Assembly (NCBI RefSeq): GCF_022846255.1
Contig: NZ_AP025682.1
DNA from: Escherichia coli
GTDB taxonomy: Bacteria > Pseudomonadota > Gammaproteobacteria > Enterobacterales > Enterobacteriaceae
Reading direction: 5' to 3' (one strand)
Length of the DNA: 64,000 bases
The translations under genes were made by a program, and so were the position numbers. The notes below the pieces were generated by a model. That model was given only the letters and a program-made list of their open reading frames with translations, was not told the DNA's origin and made no database searches. Positions 55,429-63,623 of this stretch are shown here, in pieces (the stretch's first letter is position 1; each line of letters opens with the position of its first letter).

Positions 55429-56364
55429 TCAAAGCATTTCCCGTGCCTGAGCTGCAATTCCGGCAGCATCAAATCCATGATGCTGACGCAACCACCCACG
55501 ATCCGCCGCTGCGGCATATTCTCCATCCATAATGCCTGCGCGTTTTAATTTGATCCCCGTTCCGGCCTCTGCCAACACTTCCGCGACCAGGCTACCAAGG
55601 CCGCCATTGACGTTATGCTCTTCAACCGTCATCACTGCTTTGCATCCTTTTAACGCTGCCAGCAATGCTTTGGTGTCGCATGGGCGAATCGACGGTACGC
55701 TGACAACTGTAGCCGCGATACCAGACTGCGCTAAAAGTTCTGCGGCATCGACCACTTCATGAACGGTAGAGCCTGTGGCTACCAGCGCCAGTTCGCTGCC
55801 CTCGCGCAAAGTCACCACGGCACCTGGTACAAATCGGTAGTCCTCATCGTGGATTTCCGGCAGGGCTTTACCGTCCATACGGATATAAACAGGCCCCTGA
55901 TAGCGAAGAGCATAATCAATCACCTGACGGCACTCCCGAGGTGAAGACGGGGCAAAGATTTGAATATTGCCGAAACCACGCATAACCGCAATGTCATCAA
56001 TCGCATGATGCGTGCTCGCCAGCGGTCCATAACTCGCCCCGGCATTCAGACCAAACAATTTTACGTTGGTAAAGTTGTAGCAGACATCAACCTTGATTTG
56101 CTCGTTAGCGCGAGCGATAAGAAATGGCGCGGCATTGCAGGTAACAGCCACCTTGCCGCCCAGCGCCAGCCCGGCAGCGGCACCAACCATGCTCTGTTCG
56201 GCAATACCCACATTCACCAGTCGGTCAGGAAATTGCTTAATAAAGGGAGCAATTTTTGCCGTAGACGTTGAATCAGCCACTACAGGCACCAAATCGATCC
56301 CCTCATTTACGGCATCGATAAATGCCTGAACCATCACATTTGCCAGATGTTCACTGTTACGCAT
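55429..56364 (-). CDS. Transketolase C-terminal subunit (pyrimidine-binding and C-terminal domains) of a split transketolase
   Basis: 311 aa with transketolase Pyr/C-domain character; start overlaps the upstream N-subunit gene by 8 nt. Confidence 0.8.
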   Translation of the reverse strand: MRNSEHLANVMVQAFIDAVNEGIDLVPVVADSTSTAKIAPFIKQFPDRLVNVGIAEQSMVGAAAGLALGGKVAVTCNAAPFLIARANEQIKVDVCYNFTNVKLFGLNAGASYGPLASTHHAIDDIAVMRGFGNIQIFAPSSPRECRQVIDYALRYQGPVYIRMDGKALPEIHDEDYRFVPGAVVTLREGSELALVATGSTVHEVVDAAELLAQSGIAATVVSVPSIRPCDTKALLAALKGCKAVMTVEEHNVNGGLGSLVAEVLAEAGTGIKLKRAGIMDGEYAAAADRGWLRQHHGFDAAGIAAQAREML

Positions 56365-57187
56365 CTTTGAGTTCCTTCAGTGCCTGTTCAATTTCATCGC
56401 CTTTCGGCACCCGGTGATGCCATTCCGCACGCCCTTGTATAAAGGAAATGCCTGCCCCTTTAGTGGTGTGGGCAATCACCACATTCGGTTTGCCTTCCTG
56501 TTTAAGCCCTTCAAGCGTCGCGACAACCGAAGCCATATCATTGCCCTGACATTCGGTAACCTGCATACCGAATGCCAGCCATTTCTCTGCCAGAGGATCG
56601 GTGTTCATGATTTCGCGCGTTGGCCCGGCTAATTGCAGATTATTTTTGTCATTAATAATGACCAGGTTATCAAGCCCGTAATGCGCCGCCGCCAGTGCAG
56701 CTTCCCAGTTACTGCCCTCAGCCAGCTCACCATCGCCAGTAATTAAGAAGATACGACGACGGCTTTGACTTTTTTTCGCCGCCAGCGCAAGTCCTACAGC
56801 CACAGGGAAACCATGTCCCAGTGCTCCGGTATTCAGTTCAATACCTGGCGTTTTTTGCCGAACCGGATGGCCGGGTAAGTGTGAATTTGGCTGCTGATAA
56901 GTGGAAAGCCATTCCAGTGGGAAGAATCCTGCTTCCGCCAGCACGCAGTAGTAACATCCAACAGCATGGCCTTTTGACTGAATGTATATATCCCGGTCAT
57001 CGTCGTGAAGGCGATCCGGGGCGACATTGAGAATACGAAAATAGAGTGCGGTCAGTAATTCAACCTGAGAGAGATCGGCCCCAGTGTGTCCACCTGCCGG
57101 GCTATTGGCATTTAAGCGCACGATATGGCAGCGTACCGCCCGCGCTTTACGCTCAAGGGTCTGGATATCATAGCTATAGGGATTCAT
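56357..57187 (-). CDS. Transketolase N-terminal subunit (thiamine diphosphate-binding) of a split transketolase
   Basis: 276 aa; TPP-binding region (GHTGADLS... GDGELAEGSNWEA); SD agagg before ATG. Confidence 0.8.
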   Translation of the reverse strand: MNPYSYDIQTLERKARAVRCHIVRLNANSPAGGHTGADLSQVELLTALYFRILNVAPDRLHDDDRDIYIQSKGHAVGCYYCVLAEAGFFPLEWLSTYQQPNSHLPGHPVRQKTPGIELNTGALGHGFPVAVGLALAAKKSQSRRRIFLITGDGELAEGSNWEAALAAAHYGLDNLVIINDKNNLQLAGPTREIMNTDPLAEKWLAFGMQVTECQGNDMASVVATLEGLKQEGKPNVVIAHTTKGAGISFIQGRAEWHHRVPKGDEIEQALKELKDA

Positions 57188-57216
57188 TTAATACCTCTGA
57201 ATTTATTTTCAACATG

Positions 57217-57228
57217 GAATATTTATTC
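57217..57228. promoter_or_regulatory. Imperfect copy (GAATATTTATTC) of the island palindrome, 30 bp upstream of the transketolase start
   Basis: Near-palindromic 12-mer related to GAATATATATTC. Confidence 0.35.
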
Positions 57229-57366
57229 CACCGGGGACTAAAAAAACCAGAAATCCCAGGGCGTTGCGCGGCAAGACTTACGCTGCTGCATCATACTCAG
57301 GAACATTCTGCCTCCTTACACCGTCAGTTACGTGTCCGGGTAATCATCAGTTGACCTGATATCATC

Positions 57367-57382
57367 TTGAATATATATTCAA
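57367..57382. promoter_or_regulatory. Perfect 16-bp palindrome TTGAATATATATTCAA in the divergent transketolase / regulator promoter region; candidate operator
   Basis: Self-complementary 16-mer; core GAATATATATTC recurs at 58729-58740. Confidence 0.5.
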
Positions 57383-57549
57383 TAATGATTCTTTATTCAA
57401 TTATGCCGCCTGTTTTTTATTTTTGTCCATCGCTGATTTTAAGGATTGGTTAAAGTTAGAACTCCATCACACTTAACTGTCTTCTTTTTTCGCGTATGAT
57501 AAAAGCCTCTAAGATAAGGGCGGTACGTTAATGATTTACGGGGAAATAT

Positions 57550-58500
57550 ATGGCTAAGCAGGATGAACAGCGGCTACTGGTGAAGATCGCCACTCTTTAC
57601 TATCTTGAGGGGCGAAAACAGTCTGACATCGCCCAACTTCTCTCGCTTTCTCAGTCATTTATCTCCAGAGCGCTAACCCGTTGCCAGAAAGAAGGCGTGG
57701 TTAAAATCAGCGTTGTCCAGCCGTCAAATATCTTTCTCAATCTGGAAAAAGGCATTGAAGAGCGTTACGGCATTAAACAAGCGATTGTTGTCGATACCGA
57801 AGATGATGCCACTGACCATACCATTAAACGTGCTATCGGCTCTGCCGCCGCGCACTATCTGGAAACGCGTTTAAGACCAAAAGATTTCATTGGCGTCTCT
57901 TCCTGGAGTTCTACGATTCGCGCGATGGTCGATGAAGTTCACGCCCAAAACTTAAAAGCCAGCGGCGTTATTCAGCTGCTGGGCGGCGTGGGGCCAAACG
58001 GCAATGTGCAGGCAACTATTTTGACACAGACCCTGGCCCAGCATCTGAATTGCGAAGCCTGGTTGCTTCCTTCTCAAAGCATTGAAGGTTCGGTAGAAGA
58101 GAAAAAACGCCTGGTGGCAAGCCAGGATGTGGCTGACGTTATCGCCAGATTTGACGACGTCGATATCGCCATTGTCGGCATCGGTATCCTTGAACCCTCG
58201 CAGTTGCTAAAAACCTCGGGCAACTATTATCACGAGGATATGTTACAGGTACTGGCGGATCGCGGTGCTGTGGGCGATATCTGCCTGCACTACTACGATA
58301 AACATGGTCAGCCCGTGTTGCAGGACGATGAAGATCCAGTGATTGGTATGGCACTGGATAAAATCAAAAAATGCCCGAATGTGGTGGCACTGGCGGGCGG
58401 CAAAGACAAAGTTGCCGCCATCAAAGGCGCCATGCAGGGTGGTTATATTGATGTTTTGATCACTGATTTCCCCACCGCCAGAATGCTGATTGCGGATTAA
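57550..58500 (+). CDS. SorC/DeoR-family sugar-phosphate-responsive transcriptional regulator
   Basis: 316 aa; N-terminal HTH (QSDIAQLLSLSQSFISRAL) plus C-terminal sugar-phosphate-binding domain typical of SorC/LsrR-type regulators. Confidence 0.8.
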   Translation: MAKQDEQRLLVKIATLYYLEGRKQSDIAQLLSLSQSFISRALTRCQKEGVVKISVVQPSNIFLNLEKGIEERYGIKQAIVVDTEDDATDHTIKRAIGSAAAHYLETRLRPKDFIGVSSWSSTIRAMVDEVHAQNLKASGVIQLLGGVGPNGNVQATILTQTLAQHLNCEAWLLPSQSIEGSVEEKKRLVASQDVADVIARFDDVDIAIVGIGILEPSQLLKTSGNYYHEDMLQVLADRGAVGDICLHYYDKHGQPVLQDDEDPVIGMALDKIKKCPNVVALAGGKDKVAAIKGAMQGGYIDVLITDFPTARMLIAD

Positions 58501-58525
58501 TCCTCTCCTCCCTTTCTTCTGCCCG

Positions 58526-58553
58526 CCTTTGCGAAAAAATCTTCTCGCAAAGG
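58526..58553 (+). terminator. Stem-loop after the regulator gene (cctttgcga / tcgcaaagg)
   Basis: 9-bp inverted repeat with 10-nt loop; no clear T-tract. Confidence 0.35.
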
Positions 58554-58646
58554 CGCTTGCTTAAAAATCCTTTAATATCAATAAACTGAAATGATTCAAC
58601 AATCCTGTTTCTCGAGGCTTTCTCACCCTGTCACCACGCTTCTAAG

Positions 58647-58662
58647 TGTGATAGCCAGCACA
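58647..58662. promoter_or_regulatory. CRP-like site TGTGA-N6-GCACA upstream of the kinase/transporter operon
   Basis: tgtgatagccagcaca matches 9/10 of the consensus half-site positions; about 190 bp upstream of the kinase ATG. Confidence 0.45.
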
Positions 58663-58728
58663 TTTGATGATTTTTTCTCTAGCTCAGGAAGAATAATCTG
58701 GCTAAGGTATAAATAAATAATCAGCATC

Positions 58729-58740
58729 GAATATATATTC
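58729..58740. promoter_or_regulatory. Second copy of palindromic core GAATATATATTC, about 110 bp upstream of the kinase gene; candidate operator
   Basis: Exact repeat of the 12-bp palindromic core found at 57369-57380. Confidence 0.5.
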
Positions 58741-58850
58741 ACGCCTTAACACAAAATGTCACAGCAGGGCCTGATGAAGTAATAACGTGACCATGAGGAA
58801 CGCCTCATCTCCTTCCACGCCAGGATGCAATGTGACTCAGGAGACTACCT

Positions 58851-60371
58851 ATGTTTGCAGGAAATAAAGAGTTCGTTGTTGCGTTGGATGAGGGTACCAC
58901 CAATGTAAAAGCCATCGCACTTGATGGTTTCGGTAACGTGGTGGCGAAGTTTTCTCAACCACTGGCTATTCAGACGCCACGTGAAGGCTGGGTTGAGCAA
59001 TCCGGGGAAGCGTTAATCTCTGCCTCGCTTGATGTTATTGCCCAGGCCATCAACCACGTGGGGGCAGAAAATGTAGCGGCTCTGGCTATCAGTAATCAGC
59101 GTGAAACGGCTATCGGCTGGTATCGTCAGAGTGGAAAACCACTCAATGCGGCGATTACCTGGCAATGCACGCGCAGTGCAGAGTTTTGTGAAACACTTCG
59201 TCGCGAGGGCAAAGAGCAGCAAATTAAAACGACTACAGGCCTGCCTATCGCCCCGCTATTTTCCGCGTCCAAGATGCGTTGGCTACTGGAATCTACACCT
59301 GAGGGTGTGCAACTTGCCGACCAGGGTGAAATTTGTCTCGGCACCATTGATGCCTGGTTGCTATGGAACTTGACTGCTGGCGATTCATTTTGCTGCGACT
59401 ACTCTAACGCCGCGCGAACTCAATTACTTAACCTGAAAACAGGCGAGTGGGATGAGGAAATGCTGGCGTTGTTTCACATCCCACGCGCTGCATTGCCAGA
59501 AATTAAACCTTCCAGTGGCCTGTTCGGTTATACCCGAGGACTTAAAACAATTCCGGATGGTATTCCCGTCATGGCGATGGTGGGCGATTCTCACGCCGCT
59601 CTTTTTGGTCATGCGTTGGGAGAAGCGGGATGTGTGAAGGCGACCTATGGGACCGGTTCTTCCGTCATGGCCCCCGTCAACTCTGCTCAGTGTGATATCG
59701 CCACACTTGCCACAACCATTGCCTGGCATGATGGCGAAAATATTATTTACGGTCTGGAAGGAAATATCCCCCACACCGGCGATGCCGTGGCATGGATGGC
59801 TGACAGCACCGGTTTAAGTGAACTGACAGACGCGGAGCTGGCCCACGAACTGAATACCCTGCCAGCCTCAGTGGATTCGACTATGGGTGTTTATTTTGTT
59901 CCTGCTCTCACTGGCCTGGGCGCGCCATGGTGGGATGACAGCGCTCGCGGCGTGGTGTGTGGCTTAAGCCGTGGCGTAAAGCGCGCGCATTTGATTCGTG
60001 CCGCAATGGAATCAATCACTTATCAAATTGCAGATGTAGTGGAGGCAATGCAACAGCATGATGATTTTCACTTATCGGCGTTAATGGTGGATGGCGGCCC
60101 GACCAAAAATGACTGGTTGATGCAATATCAGGCGGATCTGCTGGGTTGCCCGGTGATGCGCAGTGATGTGCCAGAGCTTTCAGCCATTGGTGCGGGCCTG
60201 CTCGCCCGCAAAGCGCTTATCCCCGGTACCGTTGCAGATTTAAAAGCGTTATTAACTGAACACAGTGAATTTAAACCGGACATGGCGCGTCATCAGCGAC
60301 TGCAAAAGAGATGGCAGGAGTGGCGTCATGCGGTAAACAGAACATTATGGAAACCGGCATCGTCAATTTGA
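58851..60371 (+). CDS. FGGY-family carbohydrate kinase (xylulokinase / AI-2 kinase-like)
   Basis: 506 aa; FGGY N- and C-domain character; SD aggag before ATG. Confidence 0.8.
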   Translation: MFAGNKEFVVALDEGTTNVKAIALDGFGNVVAKFSQPLAIQTPREGWVEQSGEALISASLDVIAQAINHVGAENVAALAISNQRETAIGWYRQSGKPLNAAITWQCTRSAEFCETLRREGKEQQIKTTTGLPIAPLFSASKMRWLLESTPEGVQLADQGEICLGTIDAWLLWNLTAGDSFCCDYSNAARTQLLNLKTGEWDEEMLALFHIPRAALPEIKPSSGLFGYTRGLKTIPDGIPVMAMVGDSHAALFGHALGEAGCVKATYGTGSSVMAPVNSAQCDIATLATTIAWHDGENIIYGLEGNIPHTGDAVAWMADSTGLSELTDAELAHELNTLPASVDSTMGVYFVPALTGLGAPWWDDSARGVVCGLSRGVKRAHLIRAAMESITYQIADVVEAMQQHDDFHLSALMVDGGPTKNDWLMQYQADLLGCPVMRSDVPELSAIGAGLLARKALIPGTVADLKALLTEHSEFKPDMARHQRLQKRWQEWRHAVNRTLWKPASSI

Positions 60372-60474: not shown

Positions 60475-61410
60475 ATGAAATTACGTTTAACACTGTTAAC
60501 CGCTGCGACCCTGACTGCTCTTTCTTTTTCTGCTCATGCGGTAGAAAAAGGAACCATTATGATTATGGTCAATTCACTGGATAATCCTTATTACGCCTCG
60601 GAAGCGAAAGGTGCCAGTGAAAAAGCCCAGCAACTGGGATATAAAACGACCATTCTTTCTCATGGTGAAGATGTCAAAAAACAGAATGAACTGATCGATA
60701 CTGCAATTGGTAAAAAAGTTCAGGGCATTATTTTAGATAATGCCGACTCCACTGCCAGTGTTGCAGCCATTGAAAAAGCAAAAAAAGCAGGTATTCCCGT
60801 TATATTAATTAATCGCGAAATACCTGTGGATGATGTTGCACTGGTGCAAATTACCCATAATAACTTCCAGGCTGGCTCGGAAGTTGCCAACGTATTTGTC
60901 GAGAAAATGGGAGAGAAAGGAAAATATGCCGAACTCACCTGTAATCTTGCTGATAATAATTGCGTAACTCGCTCGAAATCTTTCCATCAGGTCATTGACC
61001 AGTTCCCTGAAATGGTCAGCGTGGCGAAGCAAGATGCCAAAGGCACGTTAATTGATGGCAAACGGATAATGGACAGTATTCTGCAAGCCCATCCCGATGT
61101 AAAAGGGGTGATTTGTGGTAATGGTCCGGTTGCACTGGGAGCTATCGCAGCACTGAAAGCAGCCAATCGCAATGACGTTATTGTTGTCGGCATTGATGGC
61201 AGTAACGATGAGCGCGATGCCGTGAAAGCCGAATCATTGCAGGCTACCGTGATGTTACAAGCGCAAGCCATTGCCGCGCAGGGGGTTACCGATTTGGATA
61301 ATTACCTGCAAAAAGGAGTTAAACCAGCCAAACAGCGGGTGATGTTCCGCGGCATTCTGATAACCAAAGATAACGCAGATAAAGTCCAGGATTTCAATAT
61401 CAAATCCTGA
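60475..61410 (+). CDS. Periplasmic sugar-binding protein of an ABC transporter (RbsB/LsrB-like)
   Basis: 311 aa; signal peptide ending SAHA; periplasmic binding protein type I fold features. Confidence 0.8.
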   Translation: MKLRLTLLTAATLTALSFSAHAVEKGTIMIMVNSLDNPYYASEAKGASEKAQQLGYKTTILSHGEDVKKQNELIDTAIGKKVQGIILDNADSTASVAAIEKAKKAGIPVILINREIPVDDVALVQITHNNFQAGSEVANVFVEKMGEKGKYAELTCNLADNNCVTRSKSFHQVIDQFPEMVSVAKQDAKGTLIDGKRIMDSILQAHPDVKGVICGNGPVALGAIAALKAANRNDVIVVGIDGSNDERDAVKAESLQATVMLQAQAIAAQGVTDLDNYLQKGVKPAKQRVMFRGILITKDNADKVQDFNIKS

Positions 61411-61456
61411 TCCCAGGTCGTTGCGCCCTCACAATGAGGGCGCAGAGGAGAATATT

Positions 61457-62077
61457 ATGGATAAAAAAGTCTGGCTGGCGCTGGCAATTCTGAGCCTGGG
61501 TGGATGTCGCATCGTCTCGCAGCAGGAACTTGCCGATCTCAAATCCCCGCCTAATCCTCATATGGCAAATATCGATCAGACCTGGCAGAAAAATATCGTG
61601 CCGCAGGTGGTAGAAAATGCACGTCCGGTTGCGGAGTTAATGGCGGCGCTACAGGCAGAAAAAGATGTCGATGCTGCCTGTAAAACGCTGGGCTATCGTT
61701 CTCAGGAAGAAAACCCGTGTATTTTCTACGTTAAGGTCGAAGGTGGCATCACCAATATTGATGCGAAATCCCGTAGCGGAAAAATGACCATCACAGATAT
61801 CAGCGGCACAAATATTGTCGTGCAGACGGGGCCAACTCTTCGCGGCACGCTTCTGCGAGATGCATATAAAGGTGCAAGCTATGAGCATTTTAACGATCAG
61901 GTTTTATTTGGTGAATATGGTCGTGCTATCAATGAGCAAGCCATCAATATGATTCAGTCGGCAAAGCTTAAAACCGGGGAAACGGTTCAGGTTTATGGCG
62001 TATTTTCTGCATGGGATATTCCGCAAACTATCCCGGATATAACGCCTGCGAAAATAGCCAGGGCGGGAGGCGAGTAA
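61457..62077 (+). CDS. Putative lipoprotein of unknown function embedded in the ABC transporter operon
   Basis: 206 aa from MDKKVWLALAILSLGGC (lipobox LGGC); AGGAG SD before this ATG; the ORF track entry starts 12 codons upstream. Confidence 0.55.
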   Translation: MDKKVWLALAILSLGGCRIVSQQELADLKSPPNPHMANIDQTWQKNIVPQVVENARPVAELMAALQAEKDVDAACKTLGYRSQEENPCIFYVKVEGGITNIDAKSRSGKMTITDISGTNIVVQTGPTLRGTLLRDAYKGASYEHFNDQVLFGEYGRAINEQAINMIQSAKLKTGETVQVYGVFSAWDIPQTIPDITPAKIARAGGE

Positions 62078-62078
62078 T

Positions 62079-63623
62079 ATGTTGCCGCAAGAAATTGACA
62101 CCCCCCAGACTGATGAATCACCTGTAATCATAGAAACGCATGACTTATCGCGTATTTATCCGGGTGTGGTGGCGTTAGATAACGTGAATTACCGTGTCTA
62201 TCGCAATAGAGTGAATGTGCTTATTGGTGAAAACGGTGCGGGTAAATCCACAATGATGAAAATGCTGGCGGGGGTTGAAACACCTTCCTCAGGCAAGATC
62301 ATTCTTGATGGTAAAGAAGTTACCCTAAATTCTACCCATCAGGCCGAAAAACATGGAATTAGTATCATTTTTCAGGAACTGAATTTATTCCCGAATATGA
62401 ATGTCATAGATAACATTTTCATGGCGAATGAATTTTTTCAGAAAGGGAAGATTAACGAAAAATATCAGTATGAATTAGCCAAATCTTTATTAGAGAGACT
62501 GGAGTTGGACGTTGATCCCTATACCCAACTGGGAGAACTTGGTATTGGTCATCAGCAACTGGTGGAGATTGCCCGTGCCCTTTCTAAAGATACCCGGGTA
62601 CTGATTATGGATGAACCGACCTCGGCCCTCAGCCAGTCGGAAGTCAAAGTACTTTTCAATGTGATCGCACAACTGAAGCGCCGTGGTGTCACCATCATTT
62701 ATATCTCCCACCGTCTGGAAGAGTTGATGGAGATTGGCGATTTCATCACCATTTTCCGTGATGGTCGCTTTATTAGTGAACGCGCAGTGAGCGATGCCAG
62801 TATTCCGTGGATCATCGCACAAATGGTCGGTGATAAGAAAAAACATTTTGATTATCAACCAGCTACACAAGGTGACACTGTACTGGCGGTACTGGGGTTA
62901 ACGGCGCTGCATCCCAGCGGTGGTTACAAACTCAATGATGTGACATTCAACCTGCGTAAAGGCGAAGTTATCGGCATTTACGGCTTGCTGGGCGCAGGAC
63001 GTACTGAGCTATTTAAAGGACTGGTGGGCCTGATGCCCTGTCAGAGTGGGAAGATCCTGCTTAATGGTGAAACCATCGACAAATGCCATTTCCAGGCGCG
63101 GCTCAAAAAGGGGCTGGCGTTGGTGCCAGAAGATCGCCAGGGCGAAGGCGTCGTTCAGATGATGTCGATTCAGTCCAATATGACGCTATCCGATTTCAGC
63201 CTGCAAGGTTTTCGCCGTGCCTGGAAATGGCTGAATCCGCAAAAAGAGAGCGCCAGTGTGAAAGAGATGATCCAGCAACTGGCGATCAAAGTCAGTGATG
63301 CCGAACTCCCTATTACCTCACTCAGCGGCGGTAACCAGCAAAAAGTGGTACTTGGCAAAGCGTTGATGACCCAGCCACAGGTGGTGTTTCTTGATGAACC
63401 CACACGCGGCATTGATGTTGGCGCAAAAACCGACGTCTATCAGCTGGTGGGAAAAATGGCACAACAGGGGCTGGCAGTCATGTTCTCTTCTTCAGAACTC
63501 GATGAAGTCATGGCACTGGCAGATCGCATTCTGGTGATGGCTGATGGCCGTATTACCGCTGATCTACCCCGGGGCGAAGTCACCCGAGAGAAACTGATCG
63601 CGGCTTCAACACCTCAAGATTAA
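62079..63623 (+). CDS. Sugar ABC transporter ATP-binding protein with duplicated ABC domains (RbsA-like)
   Basis: 514 aa; Walker A GENGAGKST in first domain, signature LSGGNQQK in second domain. Confidence 0.85.
   Translation: MLPQEIDTPQTDESPVIIETHDLSRIYPGVVALDNVNYRVYRNRVNVLIGENGAGKSTMMKMLAGVETPSSGKIILDGKEVTLNSTHQAEKHGISIIFQELNLFPNMNVIDNIFMANEFFQKGKINEKYQYELAKSLLERLELDVDPYTQLGELGIGHQQLVEIARALSKDTRVLIMDEPTSALSQSEVKVLFNVIAQLKRRGVTIIYISHRLEELMEIGDFITIFRDGRFISERAVSDASIPWIIAQMVGDKKKHFDYQPATQGDTVLAVLGLTALHPSGGYKLNDVTFNLRKGEVIGIYGLLGAGRTELFKGLVGLMPCQSGKILLNGETIDKCHFQARLKKGLALVPEDRQGEGVVQMMSIQSNMTLSDFSLQGFRRAWKWLNPQKESASVKEMIQQLAIKVSDAELPITSLSGGNQQKVVLGKALMTQPQVVFLDEPTRGIDVGAKTDVYQLVGKMAQQGLAVMFSSSELDEVMALADRILVMADGRITADLPRGEVTREKLIAASTPQD

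Follow-up and report, generated by a model that had tools for sequence, protein, structure and literature searches.

Repressors of the SorC family generally bind DNA as dimers of dimers and are released by phosphosugars of the pathways they serve (PMC11229326). According to a 2024 structural study, the physiological operator of DeoR reads 5'-ATTGAACAAAATTTCAATTACCAATTTACATATGTTCAA-3'; one dimer occupies its left half, TTGAA-N6-TTCAA, and the degenerate right half has been proposed to be bound by the second dimer of the tetramer (PMC11229326). The D-apiose cluster of Escherichia coli (aptA, aptB, and aplK) has been described as functional and as specific to the lineages ST131 and STc14, where it follows downstream of the enterobactin genes, and growth on D-apiose has been demonstrated for it (PMC13001218). 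That paper nowhere mentions a regulator, and our literature search for the regulation of apiose genes found nothing relevant. Here, we analyze a 64 kb stretch of E. coli DNA (contig NZ_AP025682.1, referred to as the window) that carries this cluster, and within it three closely related palindromes near the gene for a predicted SorC-family regulator. We consider it likely that each of the three palindromes forms the strong half of a two-part operator, and that these operators are bound by this adjacent regulator, a protein of the SorC/DeoR subfamily by its sequence, and control the D-apiose cluster. The regulator probably also controls its own gene. Control of this type is ordinary; its description for the apiose cluster is apparently new.

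Palindromes and their partner dyads

A first-pass annotation of this DNA had pointed to a perfect 16 bp palindrome, TTGAATATATATTCAA, at 57367-57382, to a recurrence of its 12 bp core, GAATATATATTC, at 58729-58740, and to a degenerate copy at 57217-57228, and the coordinates and sequences are all as it gave them. We refer to these as the strong dyads of O1, O2, and O3, respectively (Table 1). Three matches to GAATATATATTC with at most one mismatch occur in the window against 0.06 expected, and none of 100 dinucleotide-preserving shuffles reached three. Recurrence of the dyad in the window is far beyond chance. The three dyad positions are also the sole occurrences in the window of the looser pattern GAAT....ATTC.

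The annotation had made its operator reading depend on the 12-mer not being comparably frequent throughout the genome, and in the background that we sampled it was not. That background came to about 0.51 Mb, made up of 404,586 bp of flanks from related loci (described below), the part of the window that lies beyond the island (55.4 kb), and 50 kb sampled from an E. coli chromosome, and it contained no unrelated match with at most one mismatch. The 404,586 bp outside the cluster spans held three exact matches, all of them in Kluyvera cluster extensions (two in locus L033 and one in L036), and neither the window outside the island nor the chromosomal sample held any dyad match. Conversely, all 197 matches with at most one mismatch in 1.16 Mb of loci lie inside or adjoining the cluster, and most could be placed in specific upstream regions. 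In the DNA examined, the dyad is essentially confined to the regulatory regions of the apiose cluster.

The operator appears to be a two-part element of about 30 bp, because every strong dyad is accompanied by a degenerate one at a distance of exactly 18 bp. Among 184 non-redundant strong sites, the mean best mismatch of a second dyad was 3.2 at an offset of 18 bp, compared with about 7.5 (6.4-9.2) at all other offsets from 6 to 38. A partner with three or fewer mismatches was found at offset 18 for 66% of the 184 sites and at essentially none elsewhere (a fraction of 0.01 at offset 16). Many of these sites are orthologous, so the counts do not represent independent events, and at least four different operon contexts are represented. 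The composite consensus is tGAATAwATATTCa-N4-tGAwTnnnwATTCa, with the dyad centers 18 bp apart. When a position weight matrix for this composite was applied at a threshold of at least 8 bits, it returned three composite elements in the 64 kb and nothing else, with a mean of 0.05 after block shuffling. Each full operator is thus composed of two halves of unequal quality, with the weaker half at 18 bp, an arrangement that mirrors the operators of DeoR and CggR and would suit the dimer-of-dimers model of SorC tetramers.

Conservation across genera and the family of the regulator

We scanned one genome per species, with alignment of the regulator, and obtained 80 related loci from about 30 genera that form two groups. 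Group A comprises 30 of the 80 loci together with the locus of E. coli M1/5 (31 in total). Its regulators are 82-99% identical, it shares the gene order of the window, and its genera include Citrobacter, Klebsiella, Raoultella, Serratia, Trabulsiella, Cedecea, Mixta, Samsonia, and Intestinirhabdus. The remaining 50 loci form group B, with regulators that are 69-74% identical and several rearranged gene orders, and include Kosakonia, Kluyvera, Buttiauxella, Franconibacter, Atlantibacter, Pectobacterium, and Vibrio salinus.

In group A, O2 is the exact GAATATATATTC in all 31 loci, at -80 to -191 relative to the kinase start. The O1 core is likewise exact, about 181 bp 5' of the regulator start, in every locus but that of Mixta, which carries GAATAAATATTC. 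At O3, GAATATTTATTC lies 30 bp 5' of aptA in all loci save a fragmentary one that is without the aptA side. Across the two intergenic regions of 13 group A loci of different genera, 35 of the 36 columns of the strong dyads are invariant (11 of 12 in the O1 core, 12 of 12 in O2, and 12 of 12 in O3), compared with 102 of the 676 other intergenic columns (15%; Fisher p = 5e-26). In group B, a dyad with zero to two mismatches, mostly at the two central bases, precedes aptA, the regulator gene, and the binding-protein operon, and most of these loci have an O3-equivalent site at about +30 to +45 from aptA. Over both groups and in every gene order seen, the large majority of loci have sites 5' of aptA, the regulator gene, aplK, or the binding-protein operon, in regions whose promoters are predicted.

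An apiose-type locus from Pseudomonas was fetched separately and was not used for the matrix. Its regulator shares 59% identity and the whole recognition helix (LSQSFISRAL), and its single divergent control region contains TTGAATATTTATTCA and GCATATTTATTC, each with a partner 18 bp away. These are the two matches in 17 kb, where 0.04 would be expected, and the control region around them is GC-rich. The dyad therefore follows the regulator and the cluster through rearranged gene orders and into Vibrio and Pseudomonas.

Some loci carry the motif, or a relative of it, at additional places. In Citrobacter portucalensis (L065, 8001-11224), the two-part motif (sites 9489/9507 and 9850) lies between the gene for a GPH-family symporter and a divergent gene for a protein of about 500 aa that has no NCBIfam match. 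In Kluyvera sichuanensis (L033, 11915-13384), it lies 5' of a gene whose product, of about 490 aa, is similar (sites 13406 and 13638/13656), and a GPH symporter is encoded about 4 kb away. The symporter genes and those for the proteins of about 500 aa are candidates for extra regulon members, possibly serving apioside uptake and hydrolysis. Group B loci also have a conserved block, GCTTGTTATCTATTCAGGTATGAATAAAAATA, about 60 bp 5' of the regulator start (e.g., at about 6930-6965 in L032), with inward-facing ATTCA-N4-TGAAT half-sites. It resembles the junction of two dyads and may act as a further, weak operator for autoregulation, one without a counterpart in group A.

The regulator matches the Pfam family PF04198 (Sugar-bind) over residues 63-314 with E = 6.3e-62, and this effector domain also matches the solved domains 2r5f, 4oqp, and 3efb. 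Full-length matches were obtained to the solved structures of SorC (2w48), DeoR (8r7y, E = 3e-33), and LsrR (4l5i, E = 4e-28). Members of the SorC/DeoR subfamily have a homeodomain-like helix-turn-helix (HTH) of 50-60 aa followed by a beta-linker, as opposed to the winged helix of about 100 aa in the CggR type. The HTH of the regulator is of the short kind, with the alignments to DeoR, SorC, and LsrR beginning at residue 2-6 and the sugar-binding domain at about residue 60, whereas CggR aligns from residue 64 onward and has no N-terminal match. HTH-type Pfam matches are weak and span residues 14-52. These comparisons place the regulator, by sequence, in the SorC family and its SorC/DeoR subfamily. 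The best NCBIfam match, to the Bacillus-type DeoR, scored 201 bits (LsrR scored 136 bits), and because this falls below the cutoff of 420, the regulator is not a DeoR orthologue. The recognition-helix segment LSQSFxSR is invariant in 15 orthologues, as is R40, the residue that aligns with the base-contacting R39 of DeoR. More distant regulators were also encountered, one 44% identical in an apiose-type cluster (P0122) and one 41% identical in Dictyoglomaceae (P0125).

The proposal that the palindrome is a dedicated operator of the adjacent SorC-family regulator is, as a prediction, upheld by the restriction of the motif to the locus, its invariance across genera, its co-distribution with the regulator and cluster, and the arms and spacing of a DeoR half-operator.

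The cluster, its predicted promoters, and competing explanations

Gene content and position identify the locus as the D-apiose degradation cluster that E. coli ST131/STc14 carries beside entD. Here aplK stands in one cluster with aptA and aptB, next to entD (E. coli phylogroup B2), in agreement with the published description of the cluster (PMC13001218). The aplK operon runs past the end of the window with genes for a permease and two SDR oxidoreductases, and in E. coli M1/5 the same block of about 11 kb, including the permease and the two oxidoreductases, lies between entD and hokE. The cluster is chromosomal and is present in 630 of 5426 complete E. coli genomes. At the proximal junction of the island, the entD stop codon is 1 bp from the aptB stop, and the distal junction in E. 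coli M1/5 (L001, 23087-23965) has two tandem hokE copies and associated pseudogene fragments. We also considered the 'tkt1' transketolase island of extraintestinal pathogenic E. coli as an identity for this locus and rejected it, because its tkt1 is a single chain and its location is between metE and ysgA (PMC3349570).

Table 1. Dyads, genes, predicted promoter elements, and other features of the locus, in window coordinates
Feature	Position	Strand	Sequence	Remarks
O1 strong dyad	57367-57382		TTGAATATATATTCAA	Perfect 16 bp palindrome (TTGAA-N6-TTCAA); aptA/regulator divergent region
O1 12 bp core	57369-57380		GAATATATATTC	Inside TTGAATATATATTCAA
O1 weak dyad	57387-57398		GATTCTTTATTC	18 bp from O1 strong dyad; on the aptA strand 1 nt after the predicted -10; ATTC(A) arm and GA conserved
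O2 weak dyad	58711-58722		AAATAAATAATC	18 bp 5' of O2 strong dyad; 2 nt after the -10-like TAAGGT; 11/12 columns invariant
O2 strong dyad	58729-58740		GAATATATATTC	Exact; 111 bp 5' of the aplK start codon
O3 strong dyad	57217-57228		GAATATTTATTC	One mismatch to GAATATATATTC; part of GGAATATTTATTCC; 30 bp 5' of the aptA start codon
O3 weak dyad	57199-57210		GAATTTATTTTC	Directly adjoins the aptA Shine-Dalgarno (AGAGG, minus strand); 6/12 columns invariant
aptB	55429-56364	minus		Split transketolase gene; proposed target of O1 and O3
aptA	56357-57187	minus		Split transketolase gene; proposed target of O1 and O3
Regulator gene	57550-58500	plus		316 aa, SorC/DeoR subfamily; proposed dyad binder
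aplK	58851-60371	plus		FGGY kinase; first gene of the proposed O2 target operon
RbsB-like binding protein	60475-61410	plus		Proposed O2 target operon
DUF2291 protein	61421-62077	plus		Proposed O2 target operon
ABC ATPase	62079-63623	plus		Proposed O2 target operon
Predicted aptA promoter	57400-57429	minus	TGGACA-18 nt-CATAAT	Consensus scan; -35 at 57429-57424, -10 at 57405-57400
Predicted aplK operon -10	58703-58708	plus	TAAGGT	Proposed by analogy with the aptA promoter geometry
Predicted regulator promoter	57473-57500	plus	TTAACT-16-TATGAT	Consensus scan; TATGAT conserved in group A
Alternative predicted regulator promoter	57351-57379	plus	TTGACC-17-TATATT	Consensus scan; -10 inside O1
CRP-like site	58647-58662		TGTGATAGCCAGCACA	About 60 bp 5' of the predicted aplK start; conserved in 13/13 aligned loci
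Weaker CRP-like site	57456-57471		TTAGAACTCCATCACA	8/10; between the divergent aptA and regulator promoters; TCACA half conserved in groups A and B
Upstream open reading frame, 22 codons	57238-57306	minus	MFLSMMQQRKSCRATPWDFWFF-stop	aptA leader between O1 and O3; ribosome-binding site AAGGAGG just upstream
A7/T7 tract	57235-57252		GGGACTAAAAAAACCAGA	Directly flanks O3; conserved in groups A and B
Hairpin	58525-58554		GCCTTTGCG-N12-CGCAAAGGC	3' of the regulator stop codon; no T-run after it

Group A conserves both hexamers of the predicted aptA promoter, and group B has counterparts of them; a conserved block, GGCTAAGGTA, immediately precedes the O2 pair. Read along the aptA strand, the elements run TGGACA-18 nt-CATAAT-T-GAATAAAGAATC (weak)-ATTATT-GAATATATATTC (strong), and along the aplK strand they run TAAGGT-AT-AAATAAATAATC (weak)-AGCATC-GAATATATATTC (strong). 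The two promoters would therefore share a layout in which a -10-like hexamer is followed by the weak dyad over the start region and by the strong dyad at about +10 to +25 of the predicted start sites. Pairs positioned just after predicted, conserved -10 elements at the aptA and aplK promoters would fit repression.

The O3 pair is reversed, with the strong dyad before the weak one along the aptA strand, and it ends at the aptA Shine-Dalgarno. The first-pass annotation had placed all three sites close to promoters. This stands for O1 and O2, which adjoin predicted promoters, but O3 is not clearly promoter-proximal because it lies about 165 nt downstream of the sole predicted aptA promoter. The same annotation had suggested that binding could occlude a -10 element directly. 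The suggestion suits the predicted TTGACC-17-TATATT promoter, but that promoter is not conserved in more distant loci (L028, L029, L031, and group B). The conserved geometry instead puts the operator immediately downstream of the -10, over the start region.

Three CRP-like sites with at least 9 of 10 half-site positions were counted in the window. The site TGTGATAGCCAGCACA reaches 9/10 by eye after a two-base shift, and the computed frame (58649-58664) scored 5/10. Together with the weaker TTAGAACTCCATCACA, it stands at a class-I-like distance from the predicted aplK and aptA promoters, which suggests catabolite control of apiose use.

Several other features of the intergenic DNA are conserved. 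The start, length, and C-terminal (F/V/I)WFF-stop of the upstream open reading frame are kept in about 24 of the 31 group A loci while its middle varies freely, and the frame is absent in group B; it may encode a leader peptide or a small protein. The A7/T7 tract encodes the FF-stop end of this frame in group A and is also kept where the frame is absent. The stem of the hairpin downstream of the regulator gene is preserved by compensatory changes across genera (e.g., CCTTTACGC/GCGTAAAGG and CCCTGACG/CTCAGGG), and the hairpin may act as a terminator or a stabilizer, keeping the regulator gene insulated from the aplK promoter. No RNA family was returned by an Rfam scan of 57000-59000 with E up to 1. 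A structured leader or attenuator RNA was considered for aptA and rejected, as the minimum free energy of the 209 nt leader is unexceptional (z = -0.93) and the AU-only palindromes would give only weak hairpins.

We infer the identity of the binder, its mode as a repressor, its oligomeric state, its effector, and the positions of promoters and starts. By analogy with B. subtilis DeoR and CggR and with E. coli LsrR, the regulator would act as a tetramer (a dimer of dimers), with the strong and the weak dyad each holding one dimer of DNA-binding domains. A pair at the promoter of aptA or aplK would extend over the start site to about +25, and the bound regulator would block initiation or promoter escape. 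Immediately ahead of the aptA ribosome-binding site, the O3 pair would act as an added roadblock or anchor a loop. Release of the repressor would come from a phosphorylated intermediate of the pathway, of which the most plausible, if LsrR is a guide, is D-apulose 4-phosphate, the product of the kinase. The CRP-like sites upstream would add catabolite control.

Several observations weigh against this reading. The half-operators are 18 bp apart, compared with about 23 bp in DeoR and about 22 bp in CggR (both counted from published operator sequences). A spacing of 18 bp would put the two dimers off the shared DNA face of the published models, so the picture of one tetramer per pair may be wrong. 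Only one of the two base-contacting arginines of DeoR is retained, as R34 aligns with Q35, which is also invariant in the 15 orthologues; retention of R39 with a change of R34 to Q would fit a related but not identical specificity (GAATA-ww-TATTC and TTGAACA, respectively). Co-distribution cannot separate the regulator from the pathway genes, or a local binder from a global one, because the regulator and the pathway genes are never apart in the loci examined. In Pectobacterium, where the apiose pathway was first characterized, the loci (L075-L079) have a single composite site, 5' of aptA, and none near the regulator gene, and autoregulation may therefore not be universal. At O2, the hexamer TAAGGT was not returned by the promoter consensus scan. 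O3 is far from the sole predicted aptA promoter, and it may serve as a roadblock, a loop anchor, or the operator of an unrecognized promoter. Finally, SorC homologues of K. pneumoniae are named 'Sor operon activator' in some sources, and the operator positions are relative to predicted promoters and start sites.

The last two points are those that favor a regulator that binds the dyads but chiefly activates, or both activates and represses, as Klebsiella SorC is reported to do. We think this improbable. The pairs lie downstream of a predicted conserved -10 or far downstream at a ribosome-binding site, which are positions typical of repression, and separate CRP-like sites hold the usual activator positions. 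The characterized members of the SorC/DeoR subfamily, DeoR and LsrR, are repressors released by a phosphosugar. The abutting pair at 18 bp could reflect a distinct binding mode of SorC/DeoR tetramers, or one tetramer could bridge the strong dyads at 57217 and 57369, about 150 bp apart; this has somewhat better prospects than an activator but is still unlikely. With a distinct mode, the dimers would be about 100 degrees out of phase, and the DNA would have to untwist or wrap at the TATATA centers. With bridging, a repression loop would enclose the conserved 22-codon upstream open reading frame, and the weak dyads would then serve a second tetramer. The distance between O1 and O3 ranges from 89 to 157 bp across genera and its helical phase is not constant, and a phased O1-O3 loop, though still possible, gets no support from so variable a distance.

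A different protein might also recognize the palindromes. The ARG-box consensus of Charlier and Maas is wnTGAATwwwwATTCAnw, and TGAATATATATTCA fits its core, TGAAT-wwww-ATTCA. Over 57366-57383, CTTGAATATATATTCAAT matches nearly every specified position of this consensus, and the other two sites match the GAAT-w4-ATTC core. ArgR operators are likewise tandem and AT-rich (PMC6640053), so the dyads could be ARG boxes bound by ArgR, alone or together with the local regulator, with the arginine status controlling the apiose genes. The period of the pairs does not agree with this. A canonical E. coli ArgR site has two 18 bp boxes that are 3 bp apart, giving a period of 21 bp (PMC6640053), but the partner here is exactly 18 bp away, and offsets of 20-22 bp gave mean mismatches of 7.2-7.7 with no site at three or fewer. 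The pattern of conservation also differs, as the outer T/A of TGAAT/ATTCA is about 70% conserved, whereas positions 5 and 8 (A and T), which are a mere 'w' in ARG boxes, are about 99% conserved among sites preselected at one mismatch or fewer and are invariant also in alignments that were not chosen by motif. Moreover, the motif stands beside the apiose cluster, at its every operon including the regulator gene, and nowhere else in the DNA examined. It is present in the Pseudomonas cluster too, and the arginine regulator of Pseudomonas is an AraC-type protein. Physiologically, arginine and a plant pentose have no evident connection. We therefore give ArgR very little credence as the binder. A weaker variant of the reading with a distinct binding mode would have ArgR cross-talking with the apiose genes of pandemic ST131, thanks to the perfect mimicry of an ARG box. 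An equally slight chance falls to the palindromes being promoter or architectural elements, such as -10 or UP-like sequences or sites for H-NS, IHF, or Fis on an acquired island, conserved for promoter function. The strong dyad contains TATATT, which is scored as the -10 of one predicted promoter, the elements adjoin promoter-like hexamers, and acquired AT-rich DNA is a common target of H-NS. However, an invariant 12 bp dyad with G/C ends in at least three copies per locus is unlike degenerate -10, UP, or nucleoid-protein sites. The same dyad lies beside the aptA ribosome-binding site, where no promoter is predicted, and it is retained in the GC-rich control region of Pseudomonas. Strict pairing at 18 bp, together with the match to an operator from a solved SorC/DeoR structure, speaks for a dimeric HTH protein with sequence specificity. 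Binding by the adjacent SorC/DeoR-subfamily regulator thus remains the reading that we favor.

A recent paper singles out the D-apiose cluster as a functional trait that defines a niche and is shared by the pandemic E. coli clones ST131 and STc14 (PMC13001218). The proposed operator predicts regulon genes in about 100 genera, including the extra transporter and uncharacterized genes in Citrobacter and Kluyvera, and it names bases that could be mutated to obtain constitutive or uninducible strains for gut-colonization work. It may also offer a compact switch for sensors, one that would probably respond to D-apiose by way of a phosphosugar. To the very small set of operators known for the SorC/DeoR subfamily, it would add a third that is defined by sequence, and its other half-operator spacing could help to test the structural model of the tetramer on DNA.

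Comparison with known systems

The structural prototype of the subfamily is DeoR of B. subtilis, a tetramer with one dimer per half-operator that is freed by a phosphosugar of its pathway. The arms and spacing of the left half of its dra-nupC-pdp operator (OL18, ATTGAACAAAATTTCAAT; PDB 8r7y) are identical to those of TTGAATATATATTCAA, because the O1 palindrome itself reads TTGAA-N6-TTCAA, with TTGAA-like arms about one helical turn apart. Both regulators have the plan of an N-terminal HTH followed by a PF04198 domain, and the DeoR operator is likewise bipartite, pairing a strong palindrome with a degenerate second half. The two systems differ in that residue identity is about 30% (estimated from the alignment) and in that the conserved core here is GAATA-ww-TATTC with weaker outer T's, compared with TTGAACA in DeoR. 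The DeoR operator spans -60 to -21 and overlaps the -35, whereas the pairs here follow a predicted -10, or in one case lie at a ribosome-binding site, and DeoR has one operator where this locus has three.

CggR of B. subtilis offers a precedent for the position of the sites. It binds the gapA operator as a tetramer on a tandem element whose halves have unequal affinity, the operator lies downstream of the transcription start (+32 to +77), and release is by phosphorylated intermediates (PMC11229326). Its DNA-binding domain, however, is a winged helix of the other subfamily, and its operator contains GC and is made of direct repeats (CGGGAC). The ARG boxes of ArgR resemble the dyads as AT-rich, imperfect palindromes of 14-18 bp with TGAAT/ATTCA-like arms in tandem, but their period is 21 bp (18 + 3) rather than 18 bp, other positions are conserved, and their sites are spread over a genome-wide regulon, unlike the locus-restricted motif described here.

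LsrR of E. coli differs from the regulator in its pathway and effector, and its boxes (AACAAT ... AAGATTTAA) are unrelated to GAATATATATTC. Its recognition helix presumably differs as well. In the logic of control, however, the likeness is extensive, as LsrR is a SorC/DeoR-subfamily repressor that acts through two boxes on a sugar-like uptake and kinase operon and on its own gene, its inducer, phospho-AI-2, is the product of the FGGY-type kinase of the lsr cluster itself, and the lsr promoter also involves CRP (PMC5137460). With a divergent control region, two boxes, autoregulation, and a kinase product as inducer, LsrR would be the closest regulatory analogy in E. coli to the control that we propose for the D-apiose cluster.

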